Source: Catajapyx aquilonaris
Taxonomy: Eukaryota
DNA: 64,000 nt
NCBI GenBank assembly: GCA_000934665.2
Contig: JYFJ02001452.1
Span: forward strand, 1-64,000
Direction: 5' to 3'
The notes below the pieces were generated by a model. The model searched no databases. It saw nothing but the letters and a program-made list of their open reading frames with translations, and had not been told where the DNA came from. Positions 38,804-64,000 of this stretch are shown piece after piece; position 1 is the first letter of the stretch, and every line of letters starts with the position of its first letter. Made by a program: the position numbers and the translations under genes.

Positions 38804-39280
38804 TCATGGAACCATGATGTGCGGCGCCGAGAATAAGACCGCGATAGTGGCAATGATGGTGAACAAGGTGAAGATGATGAGGCACATCCTGTCGACCACC
38901 ATGGCGGCGAACTTCCAGTCATTGGTGATCTCCGCGGCTTCGTCCTCCTTGCGCATCTTGTCCGTGATGACCCGGAGCTCCTTGAGGATGAGCGAGAGCT
39001 CCCGGTGGGCGCACACGCAGCTGTGCACTAAGGCTGGGTCCTCGTGGGAGCTTCCCCCGACCCGGATAAAACCCCCGGTGGTGTGCGAAGACTGCAGCGT
39101 GGCCTGCCGGAAGTCGTCGTCAATGTCCAGCACGTTGGCCAGCAGGCTCTTCGACGAGCGCTCCTTCAGCTCCAACTCACGCATCTTGTTGTTCATCGTT
39201 ATAGTCTTCCGGGTTATCTTCTCGCCCGGACGACTCATCCGCAGCAGCCACGGAAGCCACTGCAGGAAGAGAGCCTTGAT
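38804..39280 (-). CDS. nAChRalpha6/nAChRalpha7: nAChR terminal coding exon (477 nt including stop): intracellular loop and TM4
   Basis: Acceptor ttccag|ATCAAG; reads [15 protein letters not shown]...[17 protein letters not shown]...[17 protein letters not shown]...SAPHIMVP then TGA (38806-38804). Confidence 0.96.
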   Translation of the reverse strand: MKALFLQWLPWLLRMSRPGEKITRKTITMNNKMRELELKERSSKSLLANVLDIDDDFRQATLQSSHTTGGFIRVGGSSHEDPALVHSCVCAHRELSLILKELRVITDKMRKEDEAAEITNDWKFAAMVVDRMCLIIFTLFTIIATIAVLFSAPHIMVP

Positions 39281-42200: not shown

Positions 42201-45200
42201 TACTGTAGTAATAGGTGCAACTTTCGCCAAGTTTGTACATTTACTCTAAGCTGACGACATAATCTTCAGCCAGCAGTGACAGTAACAGATTACGCCTGTT
42301 TGCTCCTTGTAGGACATGAGACACTGGAGCAGTTGCAGATATTGCGCAAGTGGAAGGACATCCTTACACAGACCGTTCGGGAGACCAAATTGTAATTACT
42401 GCTTATGACGAGTCCTGCATTAGCAAGATGAGAGTTAGTTACCTACTCGTGAATTATTACGTTCATGCGCCAGATGATTAAAGCCAAACTAAGGCAACAT
42501 TCCAGCCAAGTTCCTGTTTTATATCCTGTCAAAAATAATTCCGAAATATTACAGTACCAGTTGCAACTTCTCTTGTTGCCATCCTACAACAAACCCTAAC
42601 TCTTGGATCATCAACCACTTTTACTCATCCCTAGAAACGTAAATGACAACCCCCATAAAGCACCTCCGATAAATCGATCGCCTTTTCCCAGCAAAATATA
42701 CCGTAATTACCCCGTGCGAAGCGTCTTCTGCAACGATGGTGGAGCCTTAATAGCACAAGCCAGCTCTGCACCTTCCCTTCGCACATTTAGGTTGCAACAA
42801 TTCCGATTAACAGAAGGGGGGCAGCCAAGAGACCATTAGCCCTTAGCCTGAGTTTCTCTGTCTCTTGCTGGCATCCACAGGAGAGAAGAGGATGGGAGTA
42901 GCAGAAGGAGAAAAAAAAGAGGGAAAGTTTCTTTTCCATTCCCCTCTCCTTGCTTGCTCCGCTGGCTGAGAATCTACGGCTTATCTCCCGCCGACCACTC
43001 GCCCCCTTCTCTTCTCTTCCCCATCCTCGCCTTGTTTTGCCCGCAGCACGCCCAAATTGACGGCAGATGTTGCCCTTTCTACTCCACTTCTCACCCTGCC
43101 CTTCCCTACTGAAATAATGGAGACGACGACGAGGCTTCCAGAAGATGGAGAAAGAAAGAAGAAAATGGCGGAGAATGTGAGGATCAGACAAAGTGCAGCA
43201 CACCTCGCCAGCTAAATCTTATTAGTCCTGCTGTTGGAAATCGGATAATTAGCTTCGCGCTCTGGAGTTCAGAAAAGGTATGTAACGAGGTGTAAATGCT
43301 TAAGGGGAAGTCGCATAAAGAAGGACACGGTTCTGCACATTTTCGGGGATGAATTGGCTGATTGGCTGCATGTAAGTTACTGGAGTTTCTATCTGAAGTT
43401 CATTGACTTCATTGCTGCAGTTAAAGGCTAGTAGTTGTTGGAGAATCTGAGCAAAATGACACAAATGTGCAGAGAAATAATTAATACATGTAGGTGTATC
43501 CATCTCAAGAAGCAGAACGTAAATATGGGCAAAATGTAATACTGTACCAAAATTAAGTGAAAAAGCAATATTTGTTACTATAACTCTTATGCGGACAGAT
43601 AGTCTTAGTGGCTTTATTTCCTTGCCATTCAAACGTTGATTATCCAACAGTAATATTTATAATAAAGGGTTTATTTTTGAAAATATGGGACATTTGTTTA
43701 ATTTATCAGGTCAATGGTAATTTTTAATACACAGAATGATTGATTTTACAGAAATTTCTATTAATACCGCATTTGTGTCATTGTGTTCAGACCACTCGTG
43801 GTTTTTAAATAACATATTAGCGCCAAAAAAAACAATATGTTGGTACTGTTGAAATTGTTAACAATCGCTGAATTAGCTCTACATGGCTGGGATACACAAA
43901 ATTAATTATTGGGCATGAGTCATTTAGCGGACGGAGAGTTTATTGTGGAGCAGCCTCTGTTGGGGCTATTGCTGTATGGTTAACATGGCCATGTGGAGTT
44001 TATACCAAGCGGTCAATGCTCACCCCCTTCCTCCCCACCCCCTTCAATGGGGGGGGGGGGAGAATATTATATCTCATATTAATTACTATTCCAGCTCATG
44101 CCAAAACCGCGTCGGGTGGATTTACATCGATGTACGAGCAGTATAATTCATGCCGTAGAAATCAATGAATTTGGGATGGTCTTAATTCGCAAAATTATTG
44201 GGCATAGTGGGAAGAGTATTTTTGTATCCCACTAGTAAAATTTGTATTAATAAATCTGCATTTTATAACGTGTACAAGAAACGCTTCTTGTAACCAACTT
44301 GTCTCCAATTGTAGAATAGAAGGTTAAGACTGTGCATAATTGACCAATCCTGACTCTTAATTGATCCATCATTGCCGCGCAAAAGACCCCAGACCAGGTG
44401 TGAGATTCGAATTGATTACGCCATTTTGTCGCGAAAAGATGGGCCGCAATAAAAAGAAAAAGAAAAAGAAGAAGGAAATCTGCCCGCTTTTCCTGTGAGT
44501 GAGCTGTTCTTTGTTTCACTCCCTGCAATATTATTATTCATGGAGGATAAATTTCCCAACATGGCGAACTTTATGCAAAAATGGCCCAGTCGTATTTCAT
44601 CCCTCCAAAGCTTATTCTTGGGAAGGTGCACTCCAGGAAAAAAAAAGGACGAAGAGGGAAAAGGGGTGGTTACAGGAATGGGGGGGAAGAGAGAGAAAAA
44701 AATATAAATGCTCCGGTGGTTTTCTTTTCCTGCCGGTTTTGTAAAGAAAGAAAACGACGGAAGGAAAAGGAGGAAAAGGAAGGAAGGAAGGAAAAGGACC
44801 GCAATGCAGGGAGGAGACTACTTTTGGCTCCGGCCCACCGATGTCGCCACAGCTTTGCTCCGTCCTCCCCCTCCCTTCCCTCCCTTCCCTCCCTTCCCTC
44901 CCTTCCCTCCCTACAGTGAGAAAGAGAGGGAAGGGGGGAGGGGGGAGAGGAGAGGTGGTGGGAATGCTGGCGATGGATACATCGAGTTTGTCCGGACCAG
45001 TCCGAATTTTCTCCGCAGGGGGTGAGGATGACTACTTTTCGGCACGTCTGTACCACTGCTGCCAGGTTTGGGGGGGCCAATGATGTAACAATTGGGCGAC
45101 TTGGCAACGCAGGGATCGGACAGGGTTGCCATTTCATTTTTGGACTCAATTAAAAGCTCGCCTGCATTGCGAATAATTATACGAATTGGCGATATTTTGT

Positions 45201-48200
45201 GATCGGACAATGGCCCTGCTTAAATGTATGTTAGTATGTCATTTTTAAGTATATAAGGTGGAATTTTCGTGCCACTGCTAGTCACTGCTAACTTAGCACT
45301 GCCAACACCGGCACTGCTAAGTTAGCAGTAATTAGCAGTAATACGACAATTACACCCATGCACTTTAACTACAACACATCCGGTAATGTTATGGCAAACT
45401 GCACGTAATGCACATTATTTTTGTACTGATGTACCTTATGCTAATCATTTGTAAGAAAGCAATTATTGAGTGCAACCGGGTGAAAGTTAGCGGCTGACAC
45501 ATAATTAGCAGTTACCGTTATAGCCTTGGTCCATTGTATGGCCAGAGGACATGACACCCCCCAAAAAAACCATTAATGTGTCTTTTATCAGGACCGGATC
45601 GAAATGTCACTTTCCATTAAATATGTAATTTTATTTTTCCGCCAGGTCTGTTCCCAAATAATGAGTCGAATTACACGTGGCACGTTATTTCGCATCGCCT
45701 GCCAGCGGCCTAATTGCACGTAGTTATGTAGTAATGCGGCCCGTTTCCGTATAAATATATCCGGGTCGCCGGACATACGCCCTTTTCTTACAGGCGGAGT
45801 TAAAATGCGGAGGGTAGCCCGGATGAATGGCCATCTCCCCAGGTGGCCAGAATTCCTTGTTTTCCGGCGACAAGCAGTACCTCCAAAGTGCATTGTGTCG
45901 TTCTGGGAGCATCCTCCGCGTTTAATTATCCCAACCCGGACCGAAGTAATTACGCATGGAAATGAAAATATTTGTCCTGATGCCGCATTTCCCCCGGAAT
46001 GAAAAGAACTCTCTGCCTCTCGGGCCACTACTGCACACACAGTAGTTACGTATGACTTGAGCCCGTATCGGCCAAAGAACATAATTTGCCCTGAAAAAAT
46101 ATATTGTCCAAACAGTAAACAATAATGCGCACAAATTCATAGAATTATAGAGTCGGACGAAATATATTTTTTGTGACATTTCAATAGCTTGGGCCAGAGA
46201 ACGAAAGGATTTCGAAGGCGTCAAAAGTAATAGCGATTTTTTTTTTCCAGGAGAAAATCTGCAGGTTATCAGCACCGATGGAACTATCAGTCATGGCGGG
46301 CTCGTAATCAATTTAGGCACTTGAGCCTTATTTCGGTTATCAGCTGTGCCACGGGCCTGAGCTAACGTCCCACTTTTGCAACCAACTGCAGCTGATCCCC
46401 TCAATATCGGCTCACAAAATTAATGAGAGAGGACGTTGCACTCGCTCGTTTTCTGTTTTCCCGATCGCTCCTTTTTGCTACGGCGTTTTCTACCCCTCCA
46501 GAAACTAAATCAAGCCGTGTCTGGCAGTGCAAACACGGGCCAGGCACTTAGAAACATCGAGGAGTAACTTTCCAAGTCAAATATAAACAAGGCTGACGGC
46601 CAGAGCATGCATTTTTTTATAAAGTGGAAAGAAGATAGAACGTGTGACTCACCCAAGGTGTCATTTCGTGCGTGTCGGAACTCCTATGATGGTAGTTGAG
46701 GATGAGGATGGTCGACACCACCGACGAGGCCACCATAAACATGATGCAGTTAAAATAAGTACCTGTATCACGAGATGGGAGGGAATAATAAAGAAAGGGA
46801 GGGAAAAAAATTGGGGAATTAATGGTTGGGTACAGCGACATTTGTCATCAAACAAGTCACTTTTTTTTCCATGCTTGTGAACAGAACGTTCAAAAAAAGG
46901 ACAAGTCTACAATCACTGCCTGATCTCAACTGTGAGATGACACCACGCCCGAATAAAGGAACATGGTTGGGGAGATGGCACATTTGATGACGTGCCTGGT
47001 CAGATTGGTCATGCAAACAATTTTTGGTCTGTCAGAGCGGTAGCTTGAAAATAGCCTTGCGTGCGTTTTCTTTTAAAAGTTCCAAGGCAGAAAAAATAAC
47101 TCTACAGAGAACCATACTAGAAGGCAATGCCCAGAGAGTTCTTGAGACTACCGCACCGTTCCAACAGTGATCTGGAAGGATGCAGGATCCACACATGGGC
47201 TCTCAGGCAGGCTATCAGCGAGGATTGAAAAAAAATTGGAGTTGAAAAAAGAGCTCATGACAGACATGGGAGTGGGCAAGGATTTCATGTCTCCACGAAA
47301 AAAATGCCAAATCGGAAGAGAGAAAAAAAAATCGCGAGAGAGCAAATATAAAGACAAGAGGGCTATATAAAAAGGGGTCGCGGACATACGTGTTATATAG
47401 TTACATATGTAGCCGGAACATTTCCGTATAAAATCCTTGCCGCTCACATCCGCACAAGGCAGCTTGAGTGGATTCAAAAAACGAGAAATGCAAAACTGCA
47501 AGACTTAACTCGGCAAGCACGATACTTTTGCACATGTTTCATGCCGGCCAGGAACGTATAACTCGGTGTACATCAAATGCAACACGCTCCAGTTTTCAGT
47601 TCCCAGCTATGTAAATATAATCACCTATCTCTGTCACAACATGCGTTAAATCCATCAAAATGTCAAGACACCATCACCCCCGAAAAAAAGTTCGCTATAT
47701 GCTAAAACATGAAAGAATTATGGAAGAAGAGCACAACCATTTGATACTTGGAGGCAGAGGGGAAGGGGTATCTTTAGTCACGCAAAATCTGATTCCTCCG
47801 TGAATTATGATTCAGAATTGTGGTAAATTCGTGGTATAAAAAGAGCAAAAGAGAATTCTCTTTTTTTCAAAAAACGTGAGAGAAGAATATGCCAATAATA
47901 AAAAACGACGGATCTGTAATCAAAAAAGTACTGGACGGGAGACCTTCATTTCTCCGCACTTGTCTGCAAAAAAGAGCAGTTAAGCTGACAAAAACTACTG
48001 TAAAAATACCCTATTTTCGTCTTATTGGCAAAGGGAAGGCTACAACTCCGCCTTCTCGAATTATTATAAGGTTTAAAAAGAGAGCGCATCGCTGCTGGCA
48101 TGTGGCTGTACTTTTTTATTACTTATCCTAACTATAATATGGAGGTGTGCCATACAGAAATACAATAAAATATTATAATCCTGTAAAAGTCACTGTTGTG

Positions 48201-51200
48201 TAATCCCATGTTAATATAGCATGATTTAAAAACACAACAACAGCGAAAAAAACAACAAAACGTCAAAAGAGGTTGGCGCCCAAAAACACCAACGGGCGAC
48301 GATTATTAGTAGCAAGAATACACATCGTATAACATTATTACATAGTGTGGAAGCAGGCAGAGACTCAAGCTGAGGCAAACTCAAAGCAAATGGCTGTTAC
48401 ATAATTCAGAAAGCAATCTTGATACGCCCAAGGAGCATATGGCCTGCTCCTCGAGTATTATTTCCAACTCATGTCTCTACCGAACAGGTTACTATACTAC
48501 AGATTTTGCTGCCTCCTACAGCACACACTTGAAAAAAGGGGGTAGCCTCTATAATAATAAACAAATATGCAAAAAGCGAGATTTGGGTGGATAGATACAA
48601 GGGGGGACCTAAGAGAGTCGCGACGTCGGGAACTGCGCAAAGCCTCAGCGGTCACAGGAAAATAGTAGAGAGAAATATAGAGGGGGGAATGAGAGGGAGA
48701 AAAAGAGAGTCACTCCTGAAATCAAGGGCAGTCAAAAATGGTATAAATGATGGCCATAGTAAAAAAAAAAACATTCAAAATATTGCTTTCCGGAAATATA
48801 ATGGCTGGGACGAAAAACCACACACACATGACGCACAACCGGCCCATATTTTTCATGTACAAAAAAGTGCAATATCTACCATCCGTCGAGAGCTCATCAA
48901 AAGCATGATCGTGTGGAGAGAGCAAAAGTATATAAAAAAGTACACCAAAAAATACGGGCAGCAGCCAAAAAGGGGAGGTCCAGCTGGCTGAAGACCCGTC
49001 TGACGATGGCGAAAGGAGCTGAGAGAAAACAGACAGAAAAATAGAGAGCAGAGCGGAAAAATAGGGGCGACAACAACACGACACCTGGCAGAAGGCAATA
49101 CCTAGAACGGGCAGCGCGTCAGACACCTGGGGGAGCGTCTCTGCTACTAGGTTATGGAACACGGTCAGAGATAGAAGGATGGTAACTCCTGAAATAAAGA
49201 AAGACATCTGTATCATTAAAGCTTCTCCTCAGGATAAGAAAGGCGTCCCAGACAGACAGACGGAGAGGTAGAGAGAGTGAGAGAAAAAGGAAACATCGAG
49301 AAGTGGTGGTGGGGGGACAGTATCTACTAATGGTCAGCCTCAAGCACGTCAAGTCAAGTCCTATTCTCCCCAATCCAAAATACGTCGAGTCGAGCATCTT
49401 GACGTGTTCAGGGCCGGACCGAAATGACTAGAAGGAAATACCAAGCGAGTGGAAGAGATGTACTACGATGCACAGTAGAGACGGCTCTCAACATATTCTA
49501 CACGAGAAATCTACAGGGGAGTGTGAGAAAAGTTCCTGGTACAGAGTGTTATGAAAAATAAATGAGAAAAAACAAATGGAAAGAGAAAAAGTACGAACAT
49601 GCATGATGGTAAAAATCAGCAATGAAACCGTGGTGGTTAGGAGATGTATCGTTATTATTTCTCGTTAATTATTTCTGTAATTCAGGTGCCCTTTTGTCGC
49701 TCTCGTGGACATTATCAAAAAGACAGTGCGTAGAGATATGAAGATTGCAAATACTTGCGCAATTTGTCGGGTCAGTCAAACCTATGTCGTCAACCCGCGT
49801 GAATGGGGTCAAGTGTGTGGGTACAGTACTTGTGGTGGGTATGATTATACCCGCCATCGCCTGTCTGCAACATATCAAAACACTGTTATATCAGTCGGCA
49901 GGCCGTCCATCTGAAAGAGGTTAGATTTTGTCGCCTTTTTTTTTGTTTGTTTGTTTGTTGTTCGGGAATCCTTCAGGTTCCGGTCACCCCCTGTAAGCAA
50001 ACCAAGTGATATTCATGCAAGGCACACCTCCATCTGTGTTGGGGAACCGCGTGCATGCTTCCACCCCTTCTCTCTCCCAAGTATCCAGAAGCCATGTGAG
50101 AGATGGCATGCGGCTGGCAATCAGGCTTCAGACCACATCATTCCAGGTTTGTGGGTAGTATATACACAGTCACAAAAACAACCAAATAAATATATGTACA
50201 TAAACAGCAGACGGGAACCCGGTTGCCTGCAGTGACCCAGTCCGTTGCGGCTGGAAGGTACCCTGGTCCTCTCCTTCTCGAAACTGAGTCACCTGTGTTC
50301 TCCCGGGGGTCAGTGGTTGGAAGGAGAGGGCCGGGTGCCCTCAGGTCATGAGGCCAACAAAAGTTCGACAGCCGCAACCGGACGGGGTCACCATGCACAG
50401 CCCTCATCCGACTCATGGCTTCTCCCGGGGGGGAGACATACGTCACATTCGGTCATAATTATATCTCTAGCGAGTATATACAGTTAATGATAATAATAAT
50501 ATACGGAAAATCATATCTATAGCTGAGAGTAAGCTGGTTGCAGAAGGACGGAAAGAAAACGTGTCATGACTGCCTTTGTACACTACCTATCAAGGGCACA
50601 GCTTCGGAAGTGGTAGGCATGGACTCTGCCACCAGATTCAGGAAGACAGTCAAAGAGAGCAGAATAGTGATTTCTGTAACGGAAAAAGAGGATGAAGGAG
50701 AGGTCCAAAGCATGTTCTCAATTCAAGGACAGCGTCCTTGCTTCCATAGTGCATCTCGAATGTCATGGAAAATATTACATAATTTCTTTTTTTTCTCTTG
50801 TTACGTGTTTTGAAGGATTGCATTGGGATGAATAAACTGCAGCTTCGAAGCAGGAAGCAGGATATGGTCGCTGGAATATACGTATACTTTTTCCTCTTAC
50901 ACCTCGGAAAAATACCGTCTGCATAAGGACGACCGTCAATTACAAAAATTATGACAACACATGTTATAATCATAATAATACAAATGAAATGAACATAACG
51001 CTCTCGTGGGAATGAAAGTATATACAATGAAAGGTAAACGATAAGTAGTATGCCTTTGAGTCGAGATTGAAATTTCACGGTTGTTGTTCTCACGTACTCA
51101 CACACTCATGCTTCCGAAATTCTTTAAAATTTAAAACAATTAAAAAAAACATGTAGACGTAAGCGCAACTTCTCGTCGGAGAAGAGGGAACGAAAGTCCT

Positions 51201-52730
51201 GAAAAACAGAAACAGCAAAAAAGAGTGACGAACGGACACATGCAAGGCACACGTTCAAAAGTGAAATGTCATAGGAAATGATAAATCATGCGAACGCTTC
51301 TGTCTGTCTCGCCGAGTGTGGAAGAACCACACGTCGCCATGCATAACTAGAAAAATTGATTCTCCCTCGTGCGCTGACGAGTGGTGAATAGAAGGGGGGG
51401 GGTGCAGCGGTGCGGAATGGGGAACGTGAAAAGTCGTATAGTGCTACTTAAACTAATATGTTCTCCATCCATGTAAACGCCACACGGGGGGGTTTGTAAC
51501 ACACCGCGATGATTGGTATCACTGCCACTTTGGACCTACTATCACATGAAAAACAAACCATTCCCATCACAAATGAGAGAGAGATAGAGGAAAAATAATT
51601 TTTAAACAAATAGGGGAGGTTGACACAGGTGGGCCACCTGGCTGGACTAAAAATGGGGGTGTTTTACTCGCTTCCCTTCTAGGTACGACAAAGGTAAATA
51701 TACTGTAACATTACTACTCTACTTAGTTGCCACCCCCTCTACTTGTCTAGTACGTAACCCATGTATTGACACTGCCCTGTTTGTGTGGTGGGTCACAAAC
51801 ATGCAGATTCTGCGGTCAGTGACACTTGCTTTTTTCGAGTGCTCTAGTGAGAGTGAGAAAAAACTTTCAAGCTGTGCTGTGAGTTACGGAAAGCATTTCA
51901 ACATTTCCGTGTGGACAAGAAAAAGAAATATGGTAACAGTAAAAAAGTTGAACCTACTTCAACACGACACAGTGAACACGGGACAGTACAAATGGTGCTC
52001 TGTATTTCTTTTGTTCTCCCCTCTGCTGTCCAAGTAACAAACCACCTGCTTCGAGTTGCGTTCGGTGTTTACCTATGAGAGGACGTTCGGAAGTAGGAGG
52101 CATACTCTCAGCCACCATATTGAGGAAAAACGTCAGAGACAGCAGCACAGTTACATCTACGGACAGAAAGACAAAGAGGAATATTGGCTGTAGCCATTGA
52201 ACGAGGAACTGTAGGAGTCTCTCGGACCCCCTGAGGACCTCCTAAACGAGAAAGAGATGGATGAGTGATCAGGCGGAACGGGACGGTGACAAGCAACACA
52301 ACAAACTAAACAAATCAGAGAAACAAGAGGAGAGAAAAACAAACAGTCAGAGTAAATCGGGATATCCAAAAAATGACTTTATTTTTTTAGTCATTTCTCA
52401 AAAAATCAAAGAGGACACCACGATGCGTTCATTCCACCGTTCTCGACTTACATGCAACGAAACTTTCCTGAAAGTAAAGGTCAGCTAGGAGAAAAAAACA
52501 GAGATAGAGAGAGGAAGTTGCAGTAAAAAGAGACAAGTCCGCATTCACCACTGCAAAAGCGGAAGAAATTGGCCCGTTCTCATATTTTGGGGGGAGTTTC
52601 GGGAAACCAAAACATACATATTGTTTCTTCACTCACTTTTTTTTTCCTCTCAAAAAATTTTCTATGGAAAAATTATGGGGAGAAAAAGTATTGCATGCTG
52701 CTCATGTCGGCACTGAGGTTCCAATCAGGC

Positions 52731-52771
<41 letters not shown>

Positions 52772-55700
52772 GCACGGTAACGACTCGGGGAAGGAGGATA
52801 AGGACTACGAGAGTCCAACTCTTGATGGACCCGTAGTCTCTCATCGGCTATATGCATATAATATATTTTGGTTGTCATGCAATCATGTCCCATCTCATTC
52901 CCCTCTGTGCCTCTAGAGGTAGCAAATGGCCGCTCTAGCATCCTCTACAAGGTGTACAGTACCTAATAAAGGCACAGCGTCCGATGTGGCTGGCATGGTC
53001 TCAGCGACCATGTTTAGGAATACGGTAAGGGAAAGGAGAACTGTAACACCTGCAAAACAAAAGGACATTCGAACTGTGATGCAAAGGGTGAGAAAGCGAT
53101 GCATTCAGAAAAGAAATTGGCGTCTCCAAAAAATGTGATGTCCTCTATTCTCAAAAAGGTCATCTCTAAGGCGCATTCCAAGGGAGCATAATAAACTCAT
53201 TGTGGAGGTGGCATAAAACAAAGGGTCACCTGGGTCGCACCCAGTTTCCAGTTGTCTCTCGACGGCACCATAAAACTTTGCATATATTATAATATAAGGC
53301 TACGCTTAAGTAAATTACCATGTCAAAAATAGTTGACCTACATTAGTGAGCATGACCCACGACCTACAATACAAACATGAGAGGGTGGGGAGGAAGAAAG
53401 AAAAGTGGGCAAAAAAGTCGTCACTCAATCCTTCTCCAAAGACATCGACTTATAGAAAGACACTTAACTATGACGAGTCATCTCCATGACATTCGAGTGG
53501 AAAACAAGCGAATCCCAAATCTAAAGCAAGTCAGAAAACAAATCAAACTCTCAGCAGGGGGAAGAGAGAGTCACTGGGAAGCAGCTTGGCTGAGAAAACG
53601 CGTCATGTTTTGTAAACTCCCGCTCCTTCAAAGGTTAAATGCTCGGAAATAACGAGACTCAAGCATCGGAGTCTCTGAAGAGAGGAAAAATACTCTCCAT
53701 CTCTCTCTCTCTTAGTAAAGTGGCATCCTTGGGCCCTGCGCGTCTTCTTTTCGTGCTCGAGCTGGCACTGACTTGGAGTTGATAGGCAAGGCAATTCATC
53801 TTTTCCACGTTTCAAAGAGAGGGCTCAATCGATCATCGGCAACTCCTTACTGAATGACCTGGATCAATGTGCATAATGACTCCTCAGAAAAGTTTACTTC
53901 AGCCGCTACTTTACCGACACAAACATTTCTTCAATGCTCCCGGAGTTACATATAAGAAAAAGCTGCGGTTTGGACTACCATTTTTAAGTTTTAAAAAATG
54001 TGCCTCAGCTTTAACGTACTTTATGGGAACAAGTGTGTATTTCCTTCATGTTGTTTTGAAACTTGCTTGGAATGATCATGCATTGATATACAGTTGGATT
54101 ATGAACGAAACACAAACATCGTATGGACAACAATTTTCATAAGCAGCTTTGGCACATTTTTTTTTTTTTTTTTTTTGCAAATCATCCCAGTGACTTGACT
54201 CTTCCCAGTAGCGTACACAAAACTAGAGCATGCCACATTTTGACTGCACTACGCCAAACATACTGCAGTCAAAATTTTATGTCACAAGAAAGCAATCCAA
54301 CACTCTTAACCACGATGAATACCAAGATGAAAAAGATATAAACATATACATGAGGAAAAAAAAATATAATCATATAGTGTTAATGAAGCCTCATGATTAT
54401 TCTGAGGGGGAAAAAAGGTGCCTCATGAAAACTCTTCCTGAAAGGGGGTCAATTTAAAGCTGTGATGTATTCAAATGCTCTTACCTGTATATATTATTTT
54501 TTTGTTTTAAAAGAAAACAAATGCATAACATTGTGGATAAGGGGGTTATGTAACACATGTAATATTTTTTTGCCTGCATTCAAATTTGATCGGGGGGGAT
54601 ATGTAAACGTGGGGAGGGTATTTTGTGGGTGTCACGAGGAAGCGTGCCTTGTCATACTCGCCAGTAACATTTTTTTTGCATTAAAGCGTCACTGCTCGGG
54701 TTTAAACACTTTGGATGGCTCCGACCCAAATTCCACATCGAATGACCTTTTTTACCATCATGTACTGCGGATGGTTCATTTTTTTCCTCTGTAAAATTAT
54801 CCACGTGATTTTGGTCATTGGCAGTACATCGCATGTTTGGAAAATTGAAAACGGGATGAATTTTGTCCTTCGCGCAGCGCCGCTTTAAACCACTCATTAA
54901 ACGCCTCTACATCATTAAGTCGTACTTACACACTAGGTTAAATTAGCAATTTGGTTCGGTCAACAAATGGCAGACATAATTAATCCAGGTCCGATCAGCG
55001 CTACACGTGCGGTATGATGAAGCCGAAACGTCTGAATATTTTACGTATCTCCCAGTGAACCACCACGGTTAGTACTGACAACGTTACCAGTCAAAAACTT
55101 CATTTTTGTTTTTACCGCTCAGTCTCATCTGGTCCAAAAGTGAGCAAATTTTGGCATAGTACAAACACGATCGAATTGGCTGCAGTGGACATGCGGTAGT
55201 AGAGAAAGAGCTTGTATTATAATCAGGGCGTGCAGAGCACAGGAGCTACTAGAGTGCACAGAACTTCACGAAGAACGTAAGATAGACAGAAGAGGGGAGA
55301 AGTTGGCTGCCGCTCATTCTGCAGGCCGACGACCATCTCATTTTTTTAAAAAAACAATTAATTCTGGCAACAATAAGATGGTCGATGGCACCCTCATTTG
55401 TAAGAACCCACTGAATGGCTGCGCAAGATTTCCCAGACCTGAAGTGGAAATAATTTTTATTTGAAACAGATCTTAAATGATTCCCAGCATGAAATGGCAA
55501 CAAACTTTCATCTCCATACTCGGGCAGCTTCTGCGCTCCCCGATTAATTTGAAAATATCGACCCTTCACACAAACCCAAGTCACGCGACACAGTTTCATT
55601 TAACTCGAATGCCACCGAATATCGGTTTTCTCCCGGACCTACCGCATTCGTAAAAAGCAGGGGATGGGGCGGGGAACGCCTGCCCTGTAAAAAAAAAAAA

Positions 55701-58700
55701 ATCCTCATTCCAAACGCTTACATCTCGCCAAGGTAAACCTTTATCCCGCAAAAAAAGAACCGGTACCATCCCCTAAAAATTCATGCTATCGGCCCCCTCC
55801 AAAAAATAGGTCGGATCAATAGGTCCCTGCCACAATAATGATCCTCACCCTGCACCCGGAATGGGGCATCCGGAAATGGGGCACAGCCATACTTATCCAG
55901 GAGCAGAATGAGCGCCCTTGCCCGTATATAGACAGAACCAGGATATGTGAATATGCAACTGGCAGGGGCACAGCCAACAACTATACCTATCGTCAGCTTC
56001 TCGCCGCACTCGTGAGGAAGGGTGAACCCTAGTAGTGTCATAGAGGCGATCATGACGCAGGGGATTATCAGATTCACCATGTAAAAAAGGGTTCGCCGAC
56101 GGATATGGATGGTGTAAGTTACGTCAATGTATGGCTCGGGGCAGCACACGTAGAAGATTACGTTCTTTTTCACCGGCACAGCTGGAATATGCCACAATGA
56201 TTTTTTTTTTCGGGGGGGGCGGGGGGCGGTGGGTGGTGGGTGGTCGTGAAAAGAAATGGAAAAGAAATACCATGGGGCATGTAAATATCAATGCACAGAC
56301 AAACAAGAAGACCAACAAATATATGGATGAATATGATATTTAAAAAGACATGGATATGTAACAAACCAAACAAGCCATAGACAGGTAACTACTGGCAAGC
56401 GAATGGCCATACCTAGGGAAAGTTTTTCTCCCGAGTCCGGTGGCAAGGTAAAACCAAGAACAGCCATGGAGGCGATGAGAACACATGGAACGATTAAGTT
56501 GAAAAAGTAGTACAAAGTCCGCCGACGGATAATTATTGTGAAAGTAATGTCTACATAAGGTTCAGGGCAGCATTGGTAGAATATTACATTCCTTTTGCCA
56601 GGCACACCTGTAATGGAGAAAGAGGTGGAAGAAAAAAAAATCGGCGTAAATATAAAGTCGCCGGCAGCCAAGATGAGCTGAAAAAAGCAGACAAAATTTT
56701 TCCAAAACAAAACAGAAACAGAAAAAAAATATTTGTTATTTTGTGGCTCTGCTCTCCAAATATGTATCAAACGTCGCGAGGAAAACGTTGCTCTTTTAAA
56801 ATGTCCACAATTATTTCAAAAAAGAAAATTCGGCGAAAAATTCCAGGAAATTTGAAGAGCGGAAACGGTTCTAAAAGGAAAAATGGACCACCAACAGAGT
56901 GATAGAGGATTTCTTTTTAAAAATAGACGCATTTTGTTCATAATATACTTTCAGAATAATTAGTCACCATGTCTTCATATTAATGAATGGGAAATTAAGC
57001 AATTTAATTAATAACTGTATGTAATTGCCCTCATTACAATTATGAGCAAAATGCCTGCGACTGGTGACCGATTGCCGTGAAAGAAAACCATTTTAGCTCG
57101 TAAAGACCCCAAATAGTTCCCTTTGACTTGTCACCAGTACTTTTGAGAGAAGAAGGCAGTGGACAGGACAAACAGGATCGGAGTGTGCCCTTAGGAAAAC
57201 TTAATAGACAGTGAGGGGATGAAATGGATGGAAACTGTGGGGGGAAGAAGGGTAAATGTTTCAAACGTCGGACGGACCTGACTCAGGCTCTCTGAACTAA
57301 AGTGAACTCTTCTGAATGAGTCCATGCAGCCTCCGAGAGTATTGATTCGAGGGGAGGGAATAGGGTGGGTGGGTGGTAGAGTGTGGATGGGGATGGTGTG
57401 GGTGGGGAAGAGAGTTGAGCAAACTGTGGGGGGGAGGCTGCTGCTTTTCCAACACACTAAAACTACCTTTCCTTGCCATCTAGCGAGGCGGATTCAACTC
57501 TGCCTCTGCTATGTAACAAACATCCGCGCCCTCAAACTTTGAAACTACGTAACTCCTCTCTGAACAAAGCGGGAGAATTAGTTTGGCCACCGACAAAACT
57601 TTTTTTTATAGTTTAAAAAAATTAGTTTAAACTACAGATCGGCTACGCTCTGCTGCGCTTTTGAAAAACTGTCATGCATGAACTAAAAATTTGCACATGG
57701 AGTAGAAAGAGATTGTGAATAATTGAAGTGGGTTCGAATATTTTTGCACCTGCAGGACCAGTTTCCATCAGTTCATAAAAATTTGCAAATGCATATAAAC
57801 TGACATGAATAGTAAAAGGCCGTATCTGGACTGTGAAATAATGCTCAATTATACTATTGAGTGTTCCTTTTACTCTACTTAATGCGAATCTTTTACTAAC
57901 CAGTGCAGAAATGATCTGCAAGTACGTATATTTAAGTTGTGTACAAACTGCAACCTGCATATATACATTTTAGGTAATGAAATTCAAACCTGTCGATATG
58001 TACGATCACATCAAGCATACAGTAACTACTAAAATATATGGCACACCCTGCTATTACCAGCTTGATAATTCAGCGCATTTGCACAATATTATTATTTTTT
58101 GTCCTGATGGAATATCACACCTTTTTGAGTGATGTTGCTAACTTCTTGCCTTACGAGAGAGAGAGAGGGGTAGTAATGTAATCTTCACTGACGTAAATTG
58201 CTCCTTTGGTTATTTCGGAGCGGAAAACTTTTCTCTCTGCAGTGAGTGTCAGTTTGAGAAGAAATGCGATTACTTTCCAAGTCACCTTGAACGAAGTGAC
58301 CGTCTGATGGTTGAAGCTATCGGCAGGCCCCATCAAATGCAATTTCTGGACCTGGGCACAAATATATCCGAACTTCTCCAGAAACATATCTCCAAGATCT
58401 GAGACACTGAATTAGATATTGCCTCCAGTGAAAAAACGAGGTTCGAGGAGAGATCGACGACCTCTCCTCTTGCAATTTAAAATTTAAACTGAAATGACGC
58501 CAAAACTCATGCATGACCTGGGAGGACTTTTGTGTTTATTAAATTTTGCGAACTGTTCCTTCACTTGGAAGAAAAATAGGGCGCGAGCCAATGGTGTTTG
58601 CGCCTGGACTTTCTCCTCGAGGAGAGTCCCCGTCTTACCGATGAGGTCCCATTCTCCATTTGTGATGAAACTGCTTATGTCGCCTCCGTCCTCGCTCTGC

Positions 58701-61700
58701 AGCTGCAGGTCCAGCTGCAAATTCAAAGCGGGGGCCTCGTTATTACAAACCTGCTCTAATTACACATCCCACTCAGTCGCCTGCAGTGCCTGAAACATTT
58801 TCCAAAATCCGCTTCTGCGCTGGTCATGCGTCAAAAGAAAGGACATGGGAACGTTTTAGGCGACTGATGTGGAATATTTTGGATGGGAGGAACACACACC
58901 GTGTATCCAGACAACCATGATTAAGTGGTATTCTTTCTCTTCCCACCCTCCCCATCCCAATCCCCCTCGTCTCTTCACATATTCAGGAAATACGACTTCA
59001 ACATACAGTATAAACTGAAAGAGCTGTCTTTCGAATAAAAGCCTAAGTATATGCAGTCCTCATGCATTCTTTCATGTACCTTCAAAATATACACACACAT
59101 GCACGTTCATTGTTAATGGGAAAATAATACGCTGCAATCAAGAGAAAAATGTCTAACTATTGCATGTCGTATGCAAATACGTCCAAAATATTCTTTCAAA
59201 CATCATTTCACACCATTGATGTGACAGTTTACTGGAGAAAAACACCACGTACTCTGTACTGTAGCATAAACCTCACTTGATCATCAAATTGTGCACTATA
59301 TTAACTAACTTGTTAAATGTACAGTTCCAATACATACTTGTTACGTATGTCAAAATCTTACCAGCAGAGATAACGTTTATCTGTAGTGGTTTTTTTAAAA
59401 AAGAAAAAAAGTCAAAACCTCTGCGCCAAAATTTCGGCGAAATATGCACATTGGATGTCTTCCTATTCCAATATCTCGACTTTTTTGGCCCCCACCCCCC
59501 AAAATGCCGCTGCAAAAAATAAATCTTAAAAATACGAAAATATATGACGTTATATCTTTTCATAGAACGCAGTACAAACGCCTCCTGATCCGGCGAGATT
59601 ATCCTTTTCCATTTGTATCAGTTGAGACACTGAAGCAACTTGTCCAACACTATAATTATAACCTTCCTCTATATGTAGGTCTGCGTGTAATTTTCTCCTT
59701 GCAAAAACATGTCAGACGCGCAATTTCCTTAAGCACACAAAACTCGCACACTGCCGTTGTCGCAGTTTAAAGGGGCAAAGAAACCGTCAACTCAAGCGTT
59801 GCTTCAATGTTCGTTCAAGTCTGACACGTCGACAAAGTGAAGGCCCAAAAGCAAACATTTTCCGCGCCCCCAAACGTCGAACTTCTGTTATATACTGTAT
59901 ATAAAAATATATAGATATATATTCCTGTTGGTTTTCTCTCTCTCGGTTTTTTTTTTGTGATACACACTAACACTACTCTACCAGTAAGAAATTACATGTT
60001 CTACCTCGAAAGTGCTTATACCTGGAAGCCATCATAAGTCCAGCTACCAAACTTCATGTCACAGCGCTGATCGTCAAAGGGGAACCACGTAATGTCTATC
60101 TTGCATGTGCTCTTGAAGATGCCCGGCGGAACGTACAAGCAGCTACCGTTATTTCTGACCACAACATTTGTGGGATAGGTCCCGTCGAAACCCTCATCGG
60201 CACTTGCAGGAAAGGTGGGAAACAAGGGGTAAGTATAACGGTTTACTTTTTTTTTCTTTTTTGCACGGTTAGTAAACAGAACAACACAGACTGCCCTATA
60301 AATGCAGGGGTGGAATATTAGGTGAGAAAAGAAACAATTTACGTTCCACTATAAGAGAATAAGTGCACTACTCAACCGGAGGGGGGATAAAGATTAAAAA
60401 TGTCGACTTTTTTTAAAAGAACAGGACAGAAGAAAAAAAATGGCCAGTTTTATGTCAAGAAAAATCAACCCAGCCCCAGAAAAACTCAAAAGGTTGCACA
60501 CCGAAGAAGAAAAATAGAAGAAAAAACGAGAGAGAACAGCTATCAAAAAATATAGAGATTTAAAAAAAATAGAGTTCAGAGGAAAATTGTGGACAAGAAA
60601 AAAAAAAACACCGAAGCAGCCAAAACCACGTATTGGGCTACACGATACGCAGTTCATGGGACTATCACCAGGCGACCATCACCCCACATGGAAACACAGG
60701 ATTTGGTGAGTCCGCTGGGGAGTCACCTCCTGCGCCTCAACCGCTGTGTTTCCAGCAAGAGCGATTCTAACTTGGAAACATGGTGGCCCAACAACAACGG
60801 CATCTGGCCATCGTACATTGTCACCGGGCAGGTCACAAAAAGATCAGAGCCAAAAGTGAGTTTCCCCTTTACGCATGATATGATATTGTATAAGATATGT
60901 GTACTGAACGAACTGCTGCACCAGACAGCTCGAGCTTCAGTTTTACCCCCGACTAGTTGGTTTGTTCGCCATGGGAGTTCGCTATTTCCAACCCCATGAC
61001 TCGCAAACCCTTCAGCTAATATTAGATATCACCTACTAAGGACAATAGTTTTAAAAGCAATATTTCTGCAAAATTATGTCTAAAAGTCTTGGGATAGGAA
61101 GAGAGTGTGAGCATTTCCTTTTTCTTTCTTTCTCTATGATTTATGGTGCCGCTCACAACGTCTGACTGGACAGTACTTGTACTGGGTGTCACTCCAGCTC
61201 TGTCCCAGCACAAATCAAACCACTTCCTCCACCTAACACTACTTACATTTGTCCTGACCAGTCCAGTAATTAATTGGTTCGGCGACATCAGACGTTACCT
61301 TTCTTTCGACCATCGGTTGCATATCCTTTCGTAACACAACTTCAGTTGCATCGGTCTCGAAATGAAACTGCAGGTGTGGAAAACGATACAAACGAAACAA
61401 AAAAGGCGCAGTCGTTCACTCCAGCAAATGTGACACACTCAAAAAGGGTTTACTTTTACTCGCATTAAGCGGAGTAACAAATACTCTACAAAGCAATCAG
61501 GAAACATTCGCTTGTAATTTGTACAGTGGGCGTCCCCAGTTAAATTCGAGTGTCTTTTGCACATGTGTCTGGACAATTAACAAATCTTTGTACTCGCATA
61601 TGTGGCAAAAAAAAACCTACTTGCGATACACCCTGTACTACTGGGCGCCAAACATGCATATCTTGTTTTGGTATCAGAAAAAAATCCTATTCACCCTCCG

Positions 61701-62944
61701 CCAGTTCTCTCACACACTTTTTTTTCGCAGGGACGTCCAGAATTTGACGGTATCTGTACTTCGAGCGGAGATAAAACCCGGGTTCTCTGGCGCCCACAAA
61801 CAAAAGGAGTCCGAAGGCCATTGTGTGGATTCACCGTTTGAATTAATCGCCATTGAACTGACACACACATAAAAGTAGTCTGGCGTTTTGACTTGGCCGT
61901 CGCATGTCTGTAAACTTTTTCCGAAAAACAATGGGGTTGTCCAGCGAGTGCATAATATGCGCCTGGGAAATAGAATAATCAACAAAATAGTTTATAGGAA
62001 GACTACAACAAGTTGGTCGAAAGGAAAGAAACAGCACATCGGCCAGAGACATGTTCACACGTTCTCACCCATCGCACCTCCTCGCGTCCTCTTTCGCATA
62101 CCATCTAAAACAAAGCATTACAACTAGACTAAGAGTAGGGAGGCTTACCTTTCCCATCACATATAACAAGACAGTTATATACCGAAGGCCATCAATATGT
62201 GGCCGAAATAGGAGGTGGCACACACGCAAGACAGGAGCGGCCAGGGGCAAAACTGAAGTCTGCCGAGTTGGAAGCCATAAGGCTACATACCAACAGTCCT
62301 TTGGCTACAACTTTTGGGCTCCCAATAAGCCTCGTCCCCTTCCACGGTGTCCCTTGTTGCTGGCTTGCCAACTGAACAACTGGCCACACTAAACTTTTCT
62401 TTTTTTTTGTAAGTAACTACACAGCAGGGGAAGGAAAATCATTGCTGAAACACAAAGTGTAACTGTTTTCTCTCGAATATTTAAAAAAATGGTATCTGTA
62501 TAAAAAAAAAGAAATTGAGACGAACATAGTCGTAAAATTTATAGGGCAGAGTACAGGCTAAATAAATTTTAAGTATACTTTTCAAATCAAGTGAGCTACA
62601 ATTTTGTCAGTTGAATTACGTTCAATGCATATTTATCAGGGGAGAGAAATGGTGCGGGTTAATTGTTGGACACTCCGCACTATATCTCCATCCTGTATTT
62701 ACGTGTAACTGCGATGTCATTAGGCAGCCGTTCACAAAAATTCTGTTACGTCTTGCAGCTTCCTATTGTCATCGCGGATGCAACTAAGATCACGTGATGA
62801 GAGACAACGGCACACGCATGCTTTTTGGCCATACCTGTTGTACATGAGCACATCGGGTTTCCAGATGCGATGCGGCGGTATCCTAAGATCCTTCACCCCA
62901 CCATATTCAGACACGTTCCACCGGAGATTCACGTCGTTCCATTC
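38804..62944 (-). CDS. nAChRalpha6/nAChRalpha7: Nicotinic acetylcholine receptor alpha subunit, alpha7 class (insect alpha5/6/7 group); spliced, 5'-partial (exon 4 to terminal exon)
   Basis: Exons join in frame at GT-AG boundaries: 62944-62835, 60202-60022, 58714-58639, [56607-56413 or 56181-55987], [53049-52963, 52156-52073, 50673-50587 or 49188-49102], 46762-46653, 39280-38804. The product has [10 protein letters not shown] (loop A), the Cys-loop [20 protein letters not shown] (loop B), vicinal YxCC (alpha subunit), the GEK cation filter and TM1-TM4. The alpha6 versus alpha7 orthology is ambiguous. Confidence 0.97.
44871..44912. repeat. 9-bp tandem repeat (CTCCCTTCC), about 4.7 copies
   Basis: Direct reading; explains the REGREG and PSLPSL low-complexity ORFs. 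Confidence 0.9.
45257..45356. repeat. Palindromic (foldback) element with ~47-bp imperfect arms, MITE-like, in the last intron
   Basis: Left arm GGTGGAATTTTCGTGCCACTGCTAGTCACTGCTAACTTAGCACTGCC versus right-arm reverse complement GGTGTAATTGTCGTATTACTGCTAATTACTGCTAACTTAGCAGTGCC, with a ~6-nt spacer. Confidence 0.8.
46653..46762 (-). CDS. nAChRalpha6/nAChRalpha7: nAChR exon 9 (110 nt): (G)[36 protein letters not shown]
   Basis: Acceptor tacag|GTACT, donor TGG|gtgagt, phase 1 to 0; TM3. Confidence 0.96.
48609..48715 (-). pseudogene. Decayed fifth copy of exon 8 (pseudo-exon or poison exon, 107 nt)
   Basis: Acceptor atttcag|GAGTGACT mirrors that of 8-4. It starts (G)VTLFFSLS and ends AVPDVATLL(G)|gt in another frame, with GCT GAG GCT TTG (AEAL) between. 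It has a net +20 nt, frameshifts, an in-frame TGA and a weak gtcccc donor. Confidence 0.6.
49102..49188 (-). CDS. nAChRalpha6/nAChRalpha7: nAChR alternative exon 8-4 (87 nt): (G)[28 protein letters not shown](G)
   Basis: Acceptor atttcag|GAGTT, donor CTAG|gtattg, phase 1 to 1. Confidence 0.86.
50228..50397. repeat. Nested GC-rich inverted repeat (stem-loop) between exons 8-3 and 8-4
   Basis: Outer stem GTGACCCAGTCCGTTGCGGCTG (50232-50253) pairs with CAGCCGCAACCGGACGGGGTCAC (50369-50391); inner stem 50257-50277 pairs with 50320-50339. Confidence 0.8.
50587..50673 (-). CDS. nAChRalpha6/nAChRalpha7: nAChR alternative exon 8-3 (87 nt): (E)[28 protein letters not shown](G)
   Basis: Acceptor ttacag|AAATC, donor ATAG|gtagtg, phase 1 to 1. 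Absent from the ORF track in this frame, so translated by hand. Confidence 0.88.
52073..52156 (-). CDS. nAChRalpha6/nAChRalpha7: nAChR alternative exon 8-2 (84 nt): (D)[27 protein letters not shown](G)
   Basis: Pyrimidine tract then ccgtag|ATGTA, donor ATAG|gtaaac, phase 1 to 1; one codon shorter than the others, frame intact. Confidence 0.82.
52731..52771. repeat. (ATCA)10 microsatellite between exons 8-1 and 8-2
   Basis: Perfect tetranucleotide run. Confidence 0.95.
52963..53049 (-). CDS. nAChRalpha6/nAChRalpha7: nAChR alternative exon 8-1 (87 nt): (G)[28 protein letters not shown](G)
   Basis: Acceptor ttgcag|GTGTT, donor TTAG|gtactg, phase 1 to 1; TM2 and M2-M3 loop. Confidence 0.93.
55987..56181 (-). 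CDS. nAChRalpha6/nAChRalpha7: nAChR alternative exon 7B (195 nt): (A)[64 protein letters not shown]
   Basis: Acceptor ttccag|CTGTG, donor ATAG|gtatag; same length and phase as 7A, no stops or indels, YxCC and GEK retained. Confidence 0.88.
56413..56607 (-). CDS. nAChRalpha6/nAChRalpha7: nAChR exon 7A (195 nt): (G)[64 protein letters not shown]
   Basis: Acceptor tacag|GTGTG, donor CTAG|gtatgg, phase 1 to 1; loop C with vicinal Cys, TM1, canonical LPPDSGEK. Confidence 0.95.
58639..58714 (-). CDS. nAChRalpha6/nAChRalpha7: nAChR exon 6 (76 nt): [25 protein letters not shown]
   Basis: Acceptor ttgcag|CTGGAC, donor ATCG|gtaaga, phase 0 to 1; loop F with NGEW motif. Confidence 0.95.
60022..60202 (-). 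CDS. nAChRalpha6/nAChRalpha7: nAChR exon 5 (181 nt): (S)[60 protein letters not shown]
   Basis: Acceptor tgcaag|TGCC (uncommon AAG), donor CAG|gtataa; contains the Cys-loop and loop B; phase matches exons 4 and 6. Confidence 0.96.
62835..62944 (-). CDS. nAChRalpha6/nAChRalpha7: nAChR exon 4 (110 nt): [36 protein letters not shown](S)
   Basis: Acceptor ccag|GAATGG, donor AACAG|gtatgg, phase 0 to 2; loop A motif. Confidence 0.96.
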
Positions 62945-64000
62945 CTGGTCATAGATTCAGACAGTTAGTTAACAAATTCTGATACCCCGAGCACTCCTAG
63001 GACGCAATTGCCTCACTTCATCTTTCCATTTTTCAAAAAAATTATTAGCTCAAAGTTTGCTCCGTATTTATATTATTCCAGAGGCAAAGATTCCTGGAGC
63101 GCTGAACAACAACGACTACGAAAAGACATCCAGGATGCAAGAGTAATTATAAAATAACCGAGTGATAGATGTAACAAGTTAATTGTAAAAACCGCGGCCA
63201 GACAGAAACGCACAAGGCGACAGAAAATAGCGACATCCATTTTCTCTGTGATTTGTGTGTTTGCAACCGCTTTTTGGTTATTATATCTCCCCCGAAGATT
63301 GATGTGCAGTATACTTCAGTGCAACTGATACGATCCGTACCTTTCCGCATCTATAATGGAAACACACAACCCACAGAGGGCAAAAAACATAATAATCCCA
63401 CAGACTGTAAAACAAAAAGGCCAGAAAAAAATATAGTAGCAAAATTTTTTCCATATACCGATCATTTTTTATATCACAAAAGTCACCCAGTTATAAAAAC
63501 TAAATCTATCTAAAACACGTCAGGTCTACAGCTACACAAATCGTTTAGATGTGTTTTCAGTTTGTGAAATGTTTAAAAAGCACATGTATACAATGCAGTC
63601 TATATGCTAGTTAACATTTACCTCAGGCAATTGCTTTCAGCAATTGCTTGAATTACCCATTTACAAACAAAAACATCTTAAAACAATCAACTCCGTTTGT
63701 AAAAGGTAATTTTGCTAGATGCCTACACAAAACCCCAAAATGCTTTTTGGTTGAAAAAACTCAAAAGTTAATGCAGTACTGCTTCCCTCACATTGTACCG
63801 CAAAACCAAAAAACAACAACGCGATAACTCAAAAATTTAAAAATAAACGAATGACCGGTTTTCGTCAGGCCCAAAAACTGATGAAAGCCACGGTAGAGAA
63901 AGAAAGCAAACTGCAACAGTCGCCTCCTCAGAACTGATCAGAAACCTAAATCAGAAACCGATACAGGCCTGTTTATGTAACAATGCAATCCCTGACATTT

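Follow-up and report, generated by a model that had tools for sequence, protein, structure and literature searches.

The DNA analysed here (the window, meaning the whole stretch of 64,000 nucleotides, nt) corresponds to positions 1 to 64,000 of contig JYFJ02001452.1 from Catajapyx aquilonaris. On its minus strand, it covers the 3' two-thirds of a gene that is, as judged from its sequence, a nicotinic acetylcholine receptor alpha subunit gene of the alpha7/gfA type belonging to a pancrustacean arthropod. Exon 7 is present in two copies (7a and 7b) and exon 8, which encodes most of the second transmembrane helix (TM2 or M2), in four (8a to 8d). The four copies of exon 8 are very probably functional alternative exons. 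The overall reading that we consider likely combines four functional alternative pore exons and the exon 7 pair with the inclusion of one exon 8 per transcript and an RNA-pairing switch. The gene is another case of a known arrangement, and the candidate RNA switch is the part that goes beyond it and can be tested.

The exon 7 pair and the four TM2 exons

A motif scan of the 1736 stop-to-stop open reading frames (ORFs) of at least 25 amino acids returned exactly four TM2-like ORFs, and the same four sites were recovered by tblastn with insect receptor proteins. An earlier description made from the letters of the window (hereafter the sequence-only reading) had listed four intact TM2 exons bounded by AG and GT, and its coordinates, sizes and phases were found to be exact, its start at 49102 being the last base of 8d and its end at 53049 the first base of 8a. 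The adjacent exon 7 pair that it had mentioned is likewise real, with 195 nt in each copy. AG precedes and GT trails every exon, and each exon 8 is preceded by a pyrimidine tract. Concatenation of seven exons, including one exon 7 and one exon 8, gave a single frame of 412 codons with only the terminal stop, and because this concatenation reads in one frame, the exon 8 copies are all of phase 1/1. The cluster is accordingly described as tandem homologous exons of the same phase, 87, 84, 87 and 87 nt long, a four-exon pattern that is far beyond chance. A sensitive tblastn search of positions 46000-57000 with nine whole proteins gave no sign of a fifth copy of TM2, intact or as a relic, the best match outside the exons having an E-value of 1.6.

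Each exon was compared codon by codon with its counterpart in the insect genomic locus L001, except that 8c was compared with the first exon 8 of the paralogous alpha6-type locus L011. Against L001, synonymous-only and amino-acid-changing codons numbered 11 and 1 for 8a, 17 and 1 for 8b, 14 and 1 for 8d, 28 and 5 for 7a, and 27 and 15 for 7b; against L011, they numbered 18 and 4 for 8c. By this codon count, all exon 7 and exon 8 copies are intact and under purifying selection. Residue matches to L001 were 27/28 for 8a (to its first exon 8), 26/27 for 8b and 27/28 for 8d (to its third exon 8), all reciprocal best, and 8c was closest to the first exon 8 of L011 (24/28 residues); 7a was 84-94% identical to its relatives. 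Since the window exons have reciprocal best matches in insect loci, the architecture is old and conserved, and the exon 8 copies are old duplicates as well, their mutual nucleotide identity being only 55-71%. The 8b type was also found in Rhodnius, Halyomorpha, Zootermopsis, Timema and Ephemera, and the 8d type in decapod, Lycorma, Timema and Ephemera models; because the same variants occur in these other arthropods, neither the short loop of 8b nor the histidine at 15' of 8d is regarded as decay.

The assignment to the receptor family was based on several features. The translation of e5 contains two cysteines with 13 residues between them, as in a Cys-loop, and Pfam PF02931 is assigned to proteins 97-98% identical to this exon. 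Both 7a and 7b encode the vicinal-cysteine motif YxCC in loop C, and all four membrane segments were located: exon 7 encodes M1, exon 8 M2, exon 9 M3 and the last exon M4, as supported by tblastn, by matches of 7a, 7b and the last exon to Pfam PF02932, and by alignment with solved structures. The last exon matched the Pfam family Neur_chan_memb with an E-value of 4.6e-16, and its best protein matches were to decapods (72-74%). No exon 3 match was obtained by tblastn in 62945-64000, and exons 1-3 are beyond the window end.

The sequence-only reading had compared the gene with insect alpha6, but the phylogeny did not uphold an orthology with alpha6. Quick trees, with support from the Shimodaira-Hasegawa-like approximate likelihood ratio test (SH-aLRT) only, placed the window gene outside the insect alpha6 clade with a support of 100 (38 rows) and 99 (27 rows, constitutive exons only, with Folsomia and Strigamia dropped as their cut anchors were missing). 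In the 38-row tree, the gene joined Artemia, Folsomia and the insect alpha7/gfA clade at a support of 84; beyond the exclusion from alpha6, the constitutive-exon tree gave a placement without resolution. By identity, it is closest to insect alpha7/gfA-type subunits, the highest overall value, 86-87%, being to a leafhopper alpha7-like protein. On account of the two trees and this identity, the gene is called alpha7-type and not alpha6. The exon architecture of the alpha7/gfA type is shared as well, as 7a, 7b, 8a, 8b and the exon encoding the FHNL motif have the same order and types in L001, L006, L008 and Timema models.

The sequence-only reading had proposed that the two clusters diversify the binding loop, filter, pore and gating loop. 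In line with this, alignments to human alpha7 show that exon 7 spans loop C and M1 and reaches into the cytoplasmic end of M2, and that the remainder of M2 together with the M2-M3 loop falls in exon 8. Exon 7a aligned to human alpha7 residues 178-241 (E-value 7e-25), a stretch that runs from loop C through M1 into the beginning of M2, as far as 3'. For all four exon 8 copies, the best solved-structure match was human alpha7 from M2 to the M2-M3 loop (residues 243-270 or part thereof), with E-values of 3.3e-7 for 8a, 5.6e-3 for 8b, 3.6e-6 for 8c and 5.2e-4 for 8d; at a cut-off of 1e-4, 8b and 8d were without any solved-structure match. With the lysine of the GEK motif numbered 0', which fits the alpha7 alignment, exon 7 carries the -1' glutamate ring and position 2' of M2, and exon 8 carries M2 from 4' onward. 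The four variants have Thr 6', Leu 9' and Glu 20' in common. At 4', the residue is Gly in 8a and 8d, Asp in 8b and Glu in 8c; 13' is Val, except for Phe in 8b; 15' is Leu, except for His in 8d; and 17' is Met in 8a and 8b and Leu in 8c and 8d. The M2-M3 loop also varies among the copies, 8b having one residue fewer. Such differences would be expected to tune conductance and gating.

Exon 7b retains the YxCC, RRR and GEK motifs, with Ser 2' replaced by Thr and several M1 residues altered. The pyrimidine tract before its acceptor is weak and A-rich, and its match to Neur_chan_memb (E-value 9e-6, 26.6 bits) is slightly below the curated cut-off of 28.1. A short minus-strand ORF at 54097-54198 with a loop-C-like Y-x-N-CC-P-Y motif showed 34% identity over 35 amino acids to the start of exon 7 (E-value 7.6-10) and is either a chance match or an eroded remnant of a third exon 7 copy. 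The features are collected in Table 1.

Table 1. Receptor exons and candidate RNA elements in the window.
Feature	Position	Strand	Length	Remarks
e4 equivalent	62835..62944	-	110 nt	Most upstream exon in the window; tblastn 94-97% to insect alpha7-like proteins; AG/GT
e5	60022..60202	-	181 nt	Cys-loop; 97-98% identity to many arthropod receptors
e6	58639..58714	-	76 nt	RNA joint 56605/58637 (cut +2) to 7a
7a	56413..56607	-	195 nt	Loop C with YxCC, M1, M2 -5' to 3'; widely conserved version
7b	55987..56181	-	195 nt	Alternative exon 7 copy
8a	52963..53049	-	87 nt	alpha7-type TM2
8b	52073..52156	-	84 nt	RNA joints 52156/56413 (7a) and 46759/52070, cut +3 (e9)
8c	50587..50673	-	87 nt	RNA joints 50673/56413 (7a) and 46759/50584, cut +3 (e9)
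8d	49102..49188	-	87 nt	His at 15' (FHNL motif)
e9	46653..46762	-	110 nt	M3; RNA joints to 8b, 8c and e10
Last exon (e10)	38804..39280	-	477 nt	Intracellular loop, M4, stop; RNA joint 39280/46653
Docking site D (candidate)	47740..47775	-		C/U-rich; in the 8d-e9 intron (I4), ~1.33 kb downstream of 8d
Selector Sa (candidate)	52888..52927	-		From 35 nt past the 8a donor; duplex with D -29.3 kcal/mol, 24 pairs
Selector Sb (candidate)	52015..52042	-		From 30 nt past the 8b donor; duplex with D -35.5 kcal/mol, 23 pairs
Selector Sc (candidate)	50061..50086	-		~500 nt past the 8c donor; duplex with D -32.9 kcal/mol
Second C/U-rich element	55269..55302	-		In the 7b-8a intron; possible upstream docking site

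As to the surrounding sequence, GA/CT low-complexity runs are abundant in the introns of the gene, the 8a-8b intron has a (TCAA)n microsatellite at 52735-52770, and the plus strand is A-rich across the gene, with an AT skew of up to 0.21. Of the 18 longest ORFs that do not belong to the receptor exons, the majority lie downstream of the gene, and none matched a Pfam family at an E-value of 0.01 or below. The window contains a single N, at position 9509.

Splicing of exon 8 and a candidate pairing system

RNA evidence was obtained from one public invertebrate metatranscriptome run, as assembled contigs, containing 6% of the sampled words, that were aligned to positions 38800-58750. Of 54 contigs, 39 were only 90-95% alike to the window, and the differences within the last exon were spaced three bases apart; owing to this identity and spacing, the contigs are taken as orthologous mRNA of a related organism. 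The joint evidence comprised 15 listed joints, with six others unlisted. Six joints had CT..AC ends, equivalent to GT..AG on the minus strand, and matched the exon boundaries: e6-7a, 7a-8b, 7a-8c, 8b-e9, 8c-e9 and e9-e10. All four listed joints into the exon 8 cluster originate at 7a, and no joint between two exon 8 copies was present among the 15. The mutually exclusive use claimed in the sequence-only reading was thus borne out in part, as 8b and 8c were each spliced singly between 7a and e9 in the relative's RNA; it was not observed for 8a or 8d, nor did the listed joints show 7b being spliced or the two exon 7 copies combining freely with the exon 8 copies. Strict inclusion of one exon 8 per transcript is nonetheless what we would expect with reasonable confidence. 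Contig depth was 60-85 for 8b, 61-92 for 8c and 137-200 for constitutive exons, which would fit with 8b and 8c as the main forms in the sampled RNA, contig depth being a poor measure.

The relative's intron between 7a and 7b lacked ~170 of 231 nt (56188-56359), as seen from a non-splice joint with AT..TG ends, and would be only ~60 nt long. Such a length is near the lower intron size limit for splicing.

Several means of enforcing the choice were considered and rejected. Steric hindrance was discarded in view of introns of 806, 1399 and 1398 nt between the variants, and incompatibility between U2 and U12 sites because all donors are GT without the U12-type consensus. Nonsense-mediated decay cannot enforce the choice, since every exon combination is in frame, including co-inclusion or skipping of all four copies.

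Pairing between introns was considered as a source of selectivity. In an unbiased scan, 24-nt windows of the flanking introns were evaluated against the three inner introns, although such scans with long sequences were swamped by GA/CU low complexity and giant interior loops. The element termed D, downstream of the cluster, was top-ranked among the windows of I4. In a short-window scan of D across ~14 kb of pre-mRNA, its three best partners were Sb, Sc and Sa, one in each intron between variants, with the next best at -26.6 kcal/mol. In the reverse scan, D was the best partner of Sb (-38.0 kcal/mol) and of Sa (-35.2 kcal/mol).

Sb is also conserved outside the window. In L001, 20/23 nt are retained at the same offset from the 8b donor, a score reached by 0/1000 shuffles, compared with 938/1000 and 905/1000 for the control flanks of 7b and 8d, respectively. 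A 13-nt core of Sb was found on the gene sense strand in L001, L003, L006, L008, L009 and L015; elsewhere in 496 kb, with both strands searched, the only matches were the complement of D and one match with one mismatch in L050. Conservation thus extends to three lineages, the third represented by L015. Sb further forms a 17-nt inverted repeat, 94% complementary, with the second C/U-rich element at 55269-55302, which is its second-best partner (-33.8 kcal/mol).

In the mechanism that we propose, D would pair with one of Sa, Sb and Sc, downstream of 8a, 8b and 8c. This pairing would loop out the intervening exons and bring the donor of the chosen exon beside e9, with 8d as the default when nothing pairs with D. 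That competing RNA pairing governs the choice of exon 8 is predicted from these complementarities, and we consider it the most likely mechanism, at a probability just short of an even chance.

A selector-like element on the minus strand at 56746-56772, 165 nt upstream of 7a, was also observed to pair with D (-25.5 kcal/mol, 20 pairs, no G-U). Where it lies does not fit a role in choosing among the exon 8 copies.

Alternative readings

Part of the evidence weighs against the overall reading. On the RNA side, the data came from a single run of a relative, and contig assemblies drop rare forms; spliced 8a, 8d or 7b was absent from the 15 listed joints of that run; and the two joints of 8b, as well as those of 8c, lie on separate contigs. 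Exons 8b and 8c might be the only real alternative exons, with 8a, 8d and also 7b being unused duplicates that still look intact. Consistent with this, only 8b and 8c have splice joints in the relative's run, and their depths (60-92 each) sum roughly to the constitutive value of 137-200, while 8a was covered only within an unspliced contig of 2733 nt, the bin depth of 8d was 1.7, and the contig over 7b also includes intron sequence. However, synonymous changes make up most of the differences between 8a, 8d and 7b and the corresponding insect exons (11/1, 14/1 and 27/15, respectively), and all three keep AG/GT and frame; their exon types stand alone as TM2 in isoforms annotated in other species; and contigs of one run demonstrate presence, not absence. 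Disuse of these copies is considered very unlikely. The choice could instead be exclusive but leaky, producing in-frame transcripts with two or zero exon 8 copies and a diversity that is smaller or messier than 2 x 4. Such products would escape nonsense-mediated decay, as the length of every exon 8 copy is divisible by three and that of exon 7 is 195 nt, so double inclusion or skipping stays in frame, and many automatic gene models of relatives do contain 7a plus 7b or two to four tandem TM2 segments. These tandem segments may, however, be prediction artefacts, and a subunit with two M2 helices would presumably have the wrong topology. Moreover, the 7a-8c joint skips both 8a and 8b, the 8b-e9 joint skips both 8c and 8d, and an 8b-8c joint was not among the 15 listed, so that leakiness is also unlikely, if somewhat less so than disuse.

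The pairing switch within the overall reading must be set against a choice made by splice-site strength together with RNA-binding proteins, in which the G-rich elements after 8a and 8b would act as splicing enhancers or silencers. G-runs are a common type of intronic splicing element, and the conserved core of Sb ends in one. The introns, rich in GA/CU low complexity, pair readily, and in the unbiased scan a GA repeat of the upstream intron yielded a window with a score like that of D. Sc is purine-rich and has D only as its fifth-best partner, and the conservation of Sa with L001 is weak (127/1000 shuffles). The docking site was not confirmed in the insect sequence covered, which does not include the last intron of the cluster: the only candidate there, L001:17518-17556, was rejected, ranking third to fourth for Sb and outside the top six for Sa. 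Furthermore, insect selectors pair with D of the window as well as or better than its own (Sb, -36.0 vs -35.5 kcal/mol; Sa, -31.4 vs -29.3 kcal/mol), which is why the conservation is described as being without compensatory change, and no compensatory changes between lineages were found in the D-selector pairs. Against the protein-based explanation, neither Sa nor Sb has a better partner than D across the 14 kb, and Sa, Sb and Sc are in turn the top three partners of D, one per intron. The complementarity spans 23-24 pairs, including the half outside the G-run, and 0/103 dinucleotide shuffles of D, matched in composition, reached the observed weakest or summed pairing energy, a figure that is not corrected for the choice of D as the best of ~1300 windows. 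On this evidence, control by splice-site strength and RNA-binding proteins is a possibility of some weight, which we hold only tentatively.

Occurrence in relatives and comparison with known systems

Retrieval with 7b yielded 79 metagenome loci, 24 of which are at least 6 kb long, and both exon 7 copies were present in seven of these 24. In L001, L006 and L008, 7a and 7b are accompanied by four TM2 exons, of which the first is of the 8a type, the second of the 8b type, the third of the FHNL type and the last of a further, fourth type; L003 shows the first three TM2 types before the contig end. Segments of the 7b type, 75-83% identical, directly follow the 7a segment in models from termites, Schistocerca, Timema, cockroaches, Anabrus, louse, Nilaparvata and Rhodnius, and more distant 7b copies were found in an amphipod, lobsters and Daphnia. 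The sequence-only reading had set the four exon 8 variants beside the two or three typical of insect alpha6, but because the same 2 x 4 layout is already present in the insect orthologues L001, L006 and L008 and in Timema models, four variants are ordinary for an alpha7-type gene. The label "Dscam-like" given in that reading is too strong for eight theoretical isoforms. Literature searches, at the level of listings beyond the passages cited here, returned no published account of an alpha7-type 2 x 4 layout, nor any literature on 'exon 8d' or 'exon 7a'/'exon 7b' of nicotinic acetylcholine receptors or joining docking/selector RNA pairing with exon choice in these receptors.

Related arrangements were observed in several of the sequences retrieved. 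The Lycorma alpha7-like model P0108 has two tandem exon-3-like segments (DEKNQ... twice), and for this reason a pair of exon 3 copies is probable in the insect alpha7-type gene too; should the window gene have such a pair, outside the window, its theoretical isoform count would double. The 51.5-kb metagenome contig L018 carries at 10001-17510 a distant alpha7-like gene with one exon 7 and one TM2 exon, the latter followed by five tandem exon-9-like (M3) exons at 11031, 12375, 13996, 14203 and 17406, possibly a mutually exclusive cluster in another animal lineage. Finally, in L010 (alpha7-type) and L011 (alpha6-type), named as contigs of a single metagenome record set, an additional intron interrupts the QVSD/FHNL-type exon 8 directly after the ETLPQ codons (L010:3620-3800 and 5614-5870; L011:3341-3424), and the 8a exon of L010 is interrupted too, elsewhere.

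The distribution of exon types could be explained by a common ancestor of arthropod alpha6 and alpha7 that had the exon 7 pair and about five TM2 exons under a docking/selector switch, with the present genes being different prunings of this set, although we find this scenario doubtful. Under it, each gene would have shed something different: the window gene its fifth type, insect alpha7 the type of 8c, and insect alpha6 those of 8a and 8b; the Sb selector would have been retained since before the compared lineages diverged. If true, few of the known RNA-structure splicing switches of ion-channel genes would be older than Sb. As a deeply conserved element, the 8b selector offers a handle on the origin of the exon arrays of both paralogues, and candidate D with the three selectors makes a short, concrete set of mutational targets.

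The arthropod alpha5/6/7 group of nicotinic receptors includes the target of spinosyn insecticides. The choice of exon 8 alters the pore and the gating loop, and an old 2 x 4 cassette is present in an alpha7-type gene, not in alpha6 alone. Isoform-dependent pharmacology and resistance are therefore worth seeking more widely, including in non-target crustaceans.

Among known systems, human CHRNA7 has exons 7, 8 and 9 of 195, 87 and 110 nt, lengths which, if correct, reflect conserved intron positions, and the exons corresponding to the duplicated ones are single-copy in the vertebrate gene. Its structures (7koo, 8c9x) provided the best solved-structure matches for exons 7 and 8, over the residue ranges given above.

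Close counterparts are the alpha7/gfA-type genes of hemimetabolous insects (L001, L003, L006, L008, Timema and isoforms predicted by NCBI). They share with the window gene the order of the 7a, 7b, 8a, 8b and FHNL types, the 8a, 8b and 8d types at 26-27 of 27-28 residues, and an Sb element ~30-37 nt after the 8b donor. They differ in that the fourth insect exon is of a different type and placed after the FHNL exon, whereas in the window gene the alpha6-like 8c precedes the FHNL exon, and the fourth insect type has left no relic.

Insect alpha6 is a separate paralogue, for which mutually exclusive exons 3a/3b and 8a/8b/8c are described in passages of Jin et al. 2007 (PMC1919356) and of a Leptinotarsa study (PMC12309072), with two to three exon 8 copies reported in the same sources. 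According to these passages, it resembles the window gene in its tandem alternative TM2 exon 8 copies, old duplication and unequal variant use. In addition, 8c and 8d of the window are nearest to two alpha6 exon 8 types (24/28 and 20/28 residues, respectively, against L011) and stand in the same relative order. Unlike the four plus two copies of the window gene, alpha6 has two to three exon 8 copies and no reported exon 7 pair; in L011, a single exon 7 is accompanied by three copies of exon 8, and the term 'exon 7' occurs 0 times in PMC1919356.

As regards the candidate switch, docking sites downstream of the cluster have been described for 14-3-3 xi and for Dscam exons 4 and 9 (Yang et al. 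2011, via PMC4691838), and such systems use as the default the exon that lies closest to the docking site, as stated in the cited part of PMC4691838. The window has only four variants, and its pairing is computational, unlike those clusters as portrayed there. The layout is alike in having one docking element past the cluster, a complementary element for each upstream variant, and no selector for the exon nearest the docking site. The weaker upstream element of the window, at 55302-55269, would in turn resemble the bidirectional model outlined in that part of PMC4691838.

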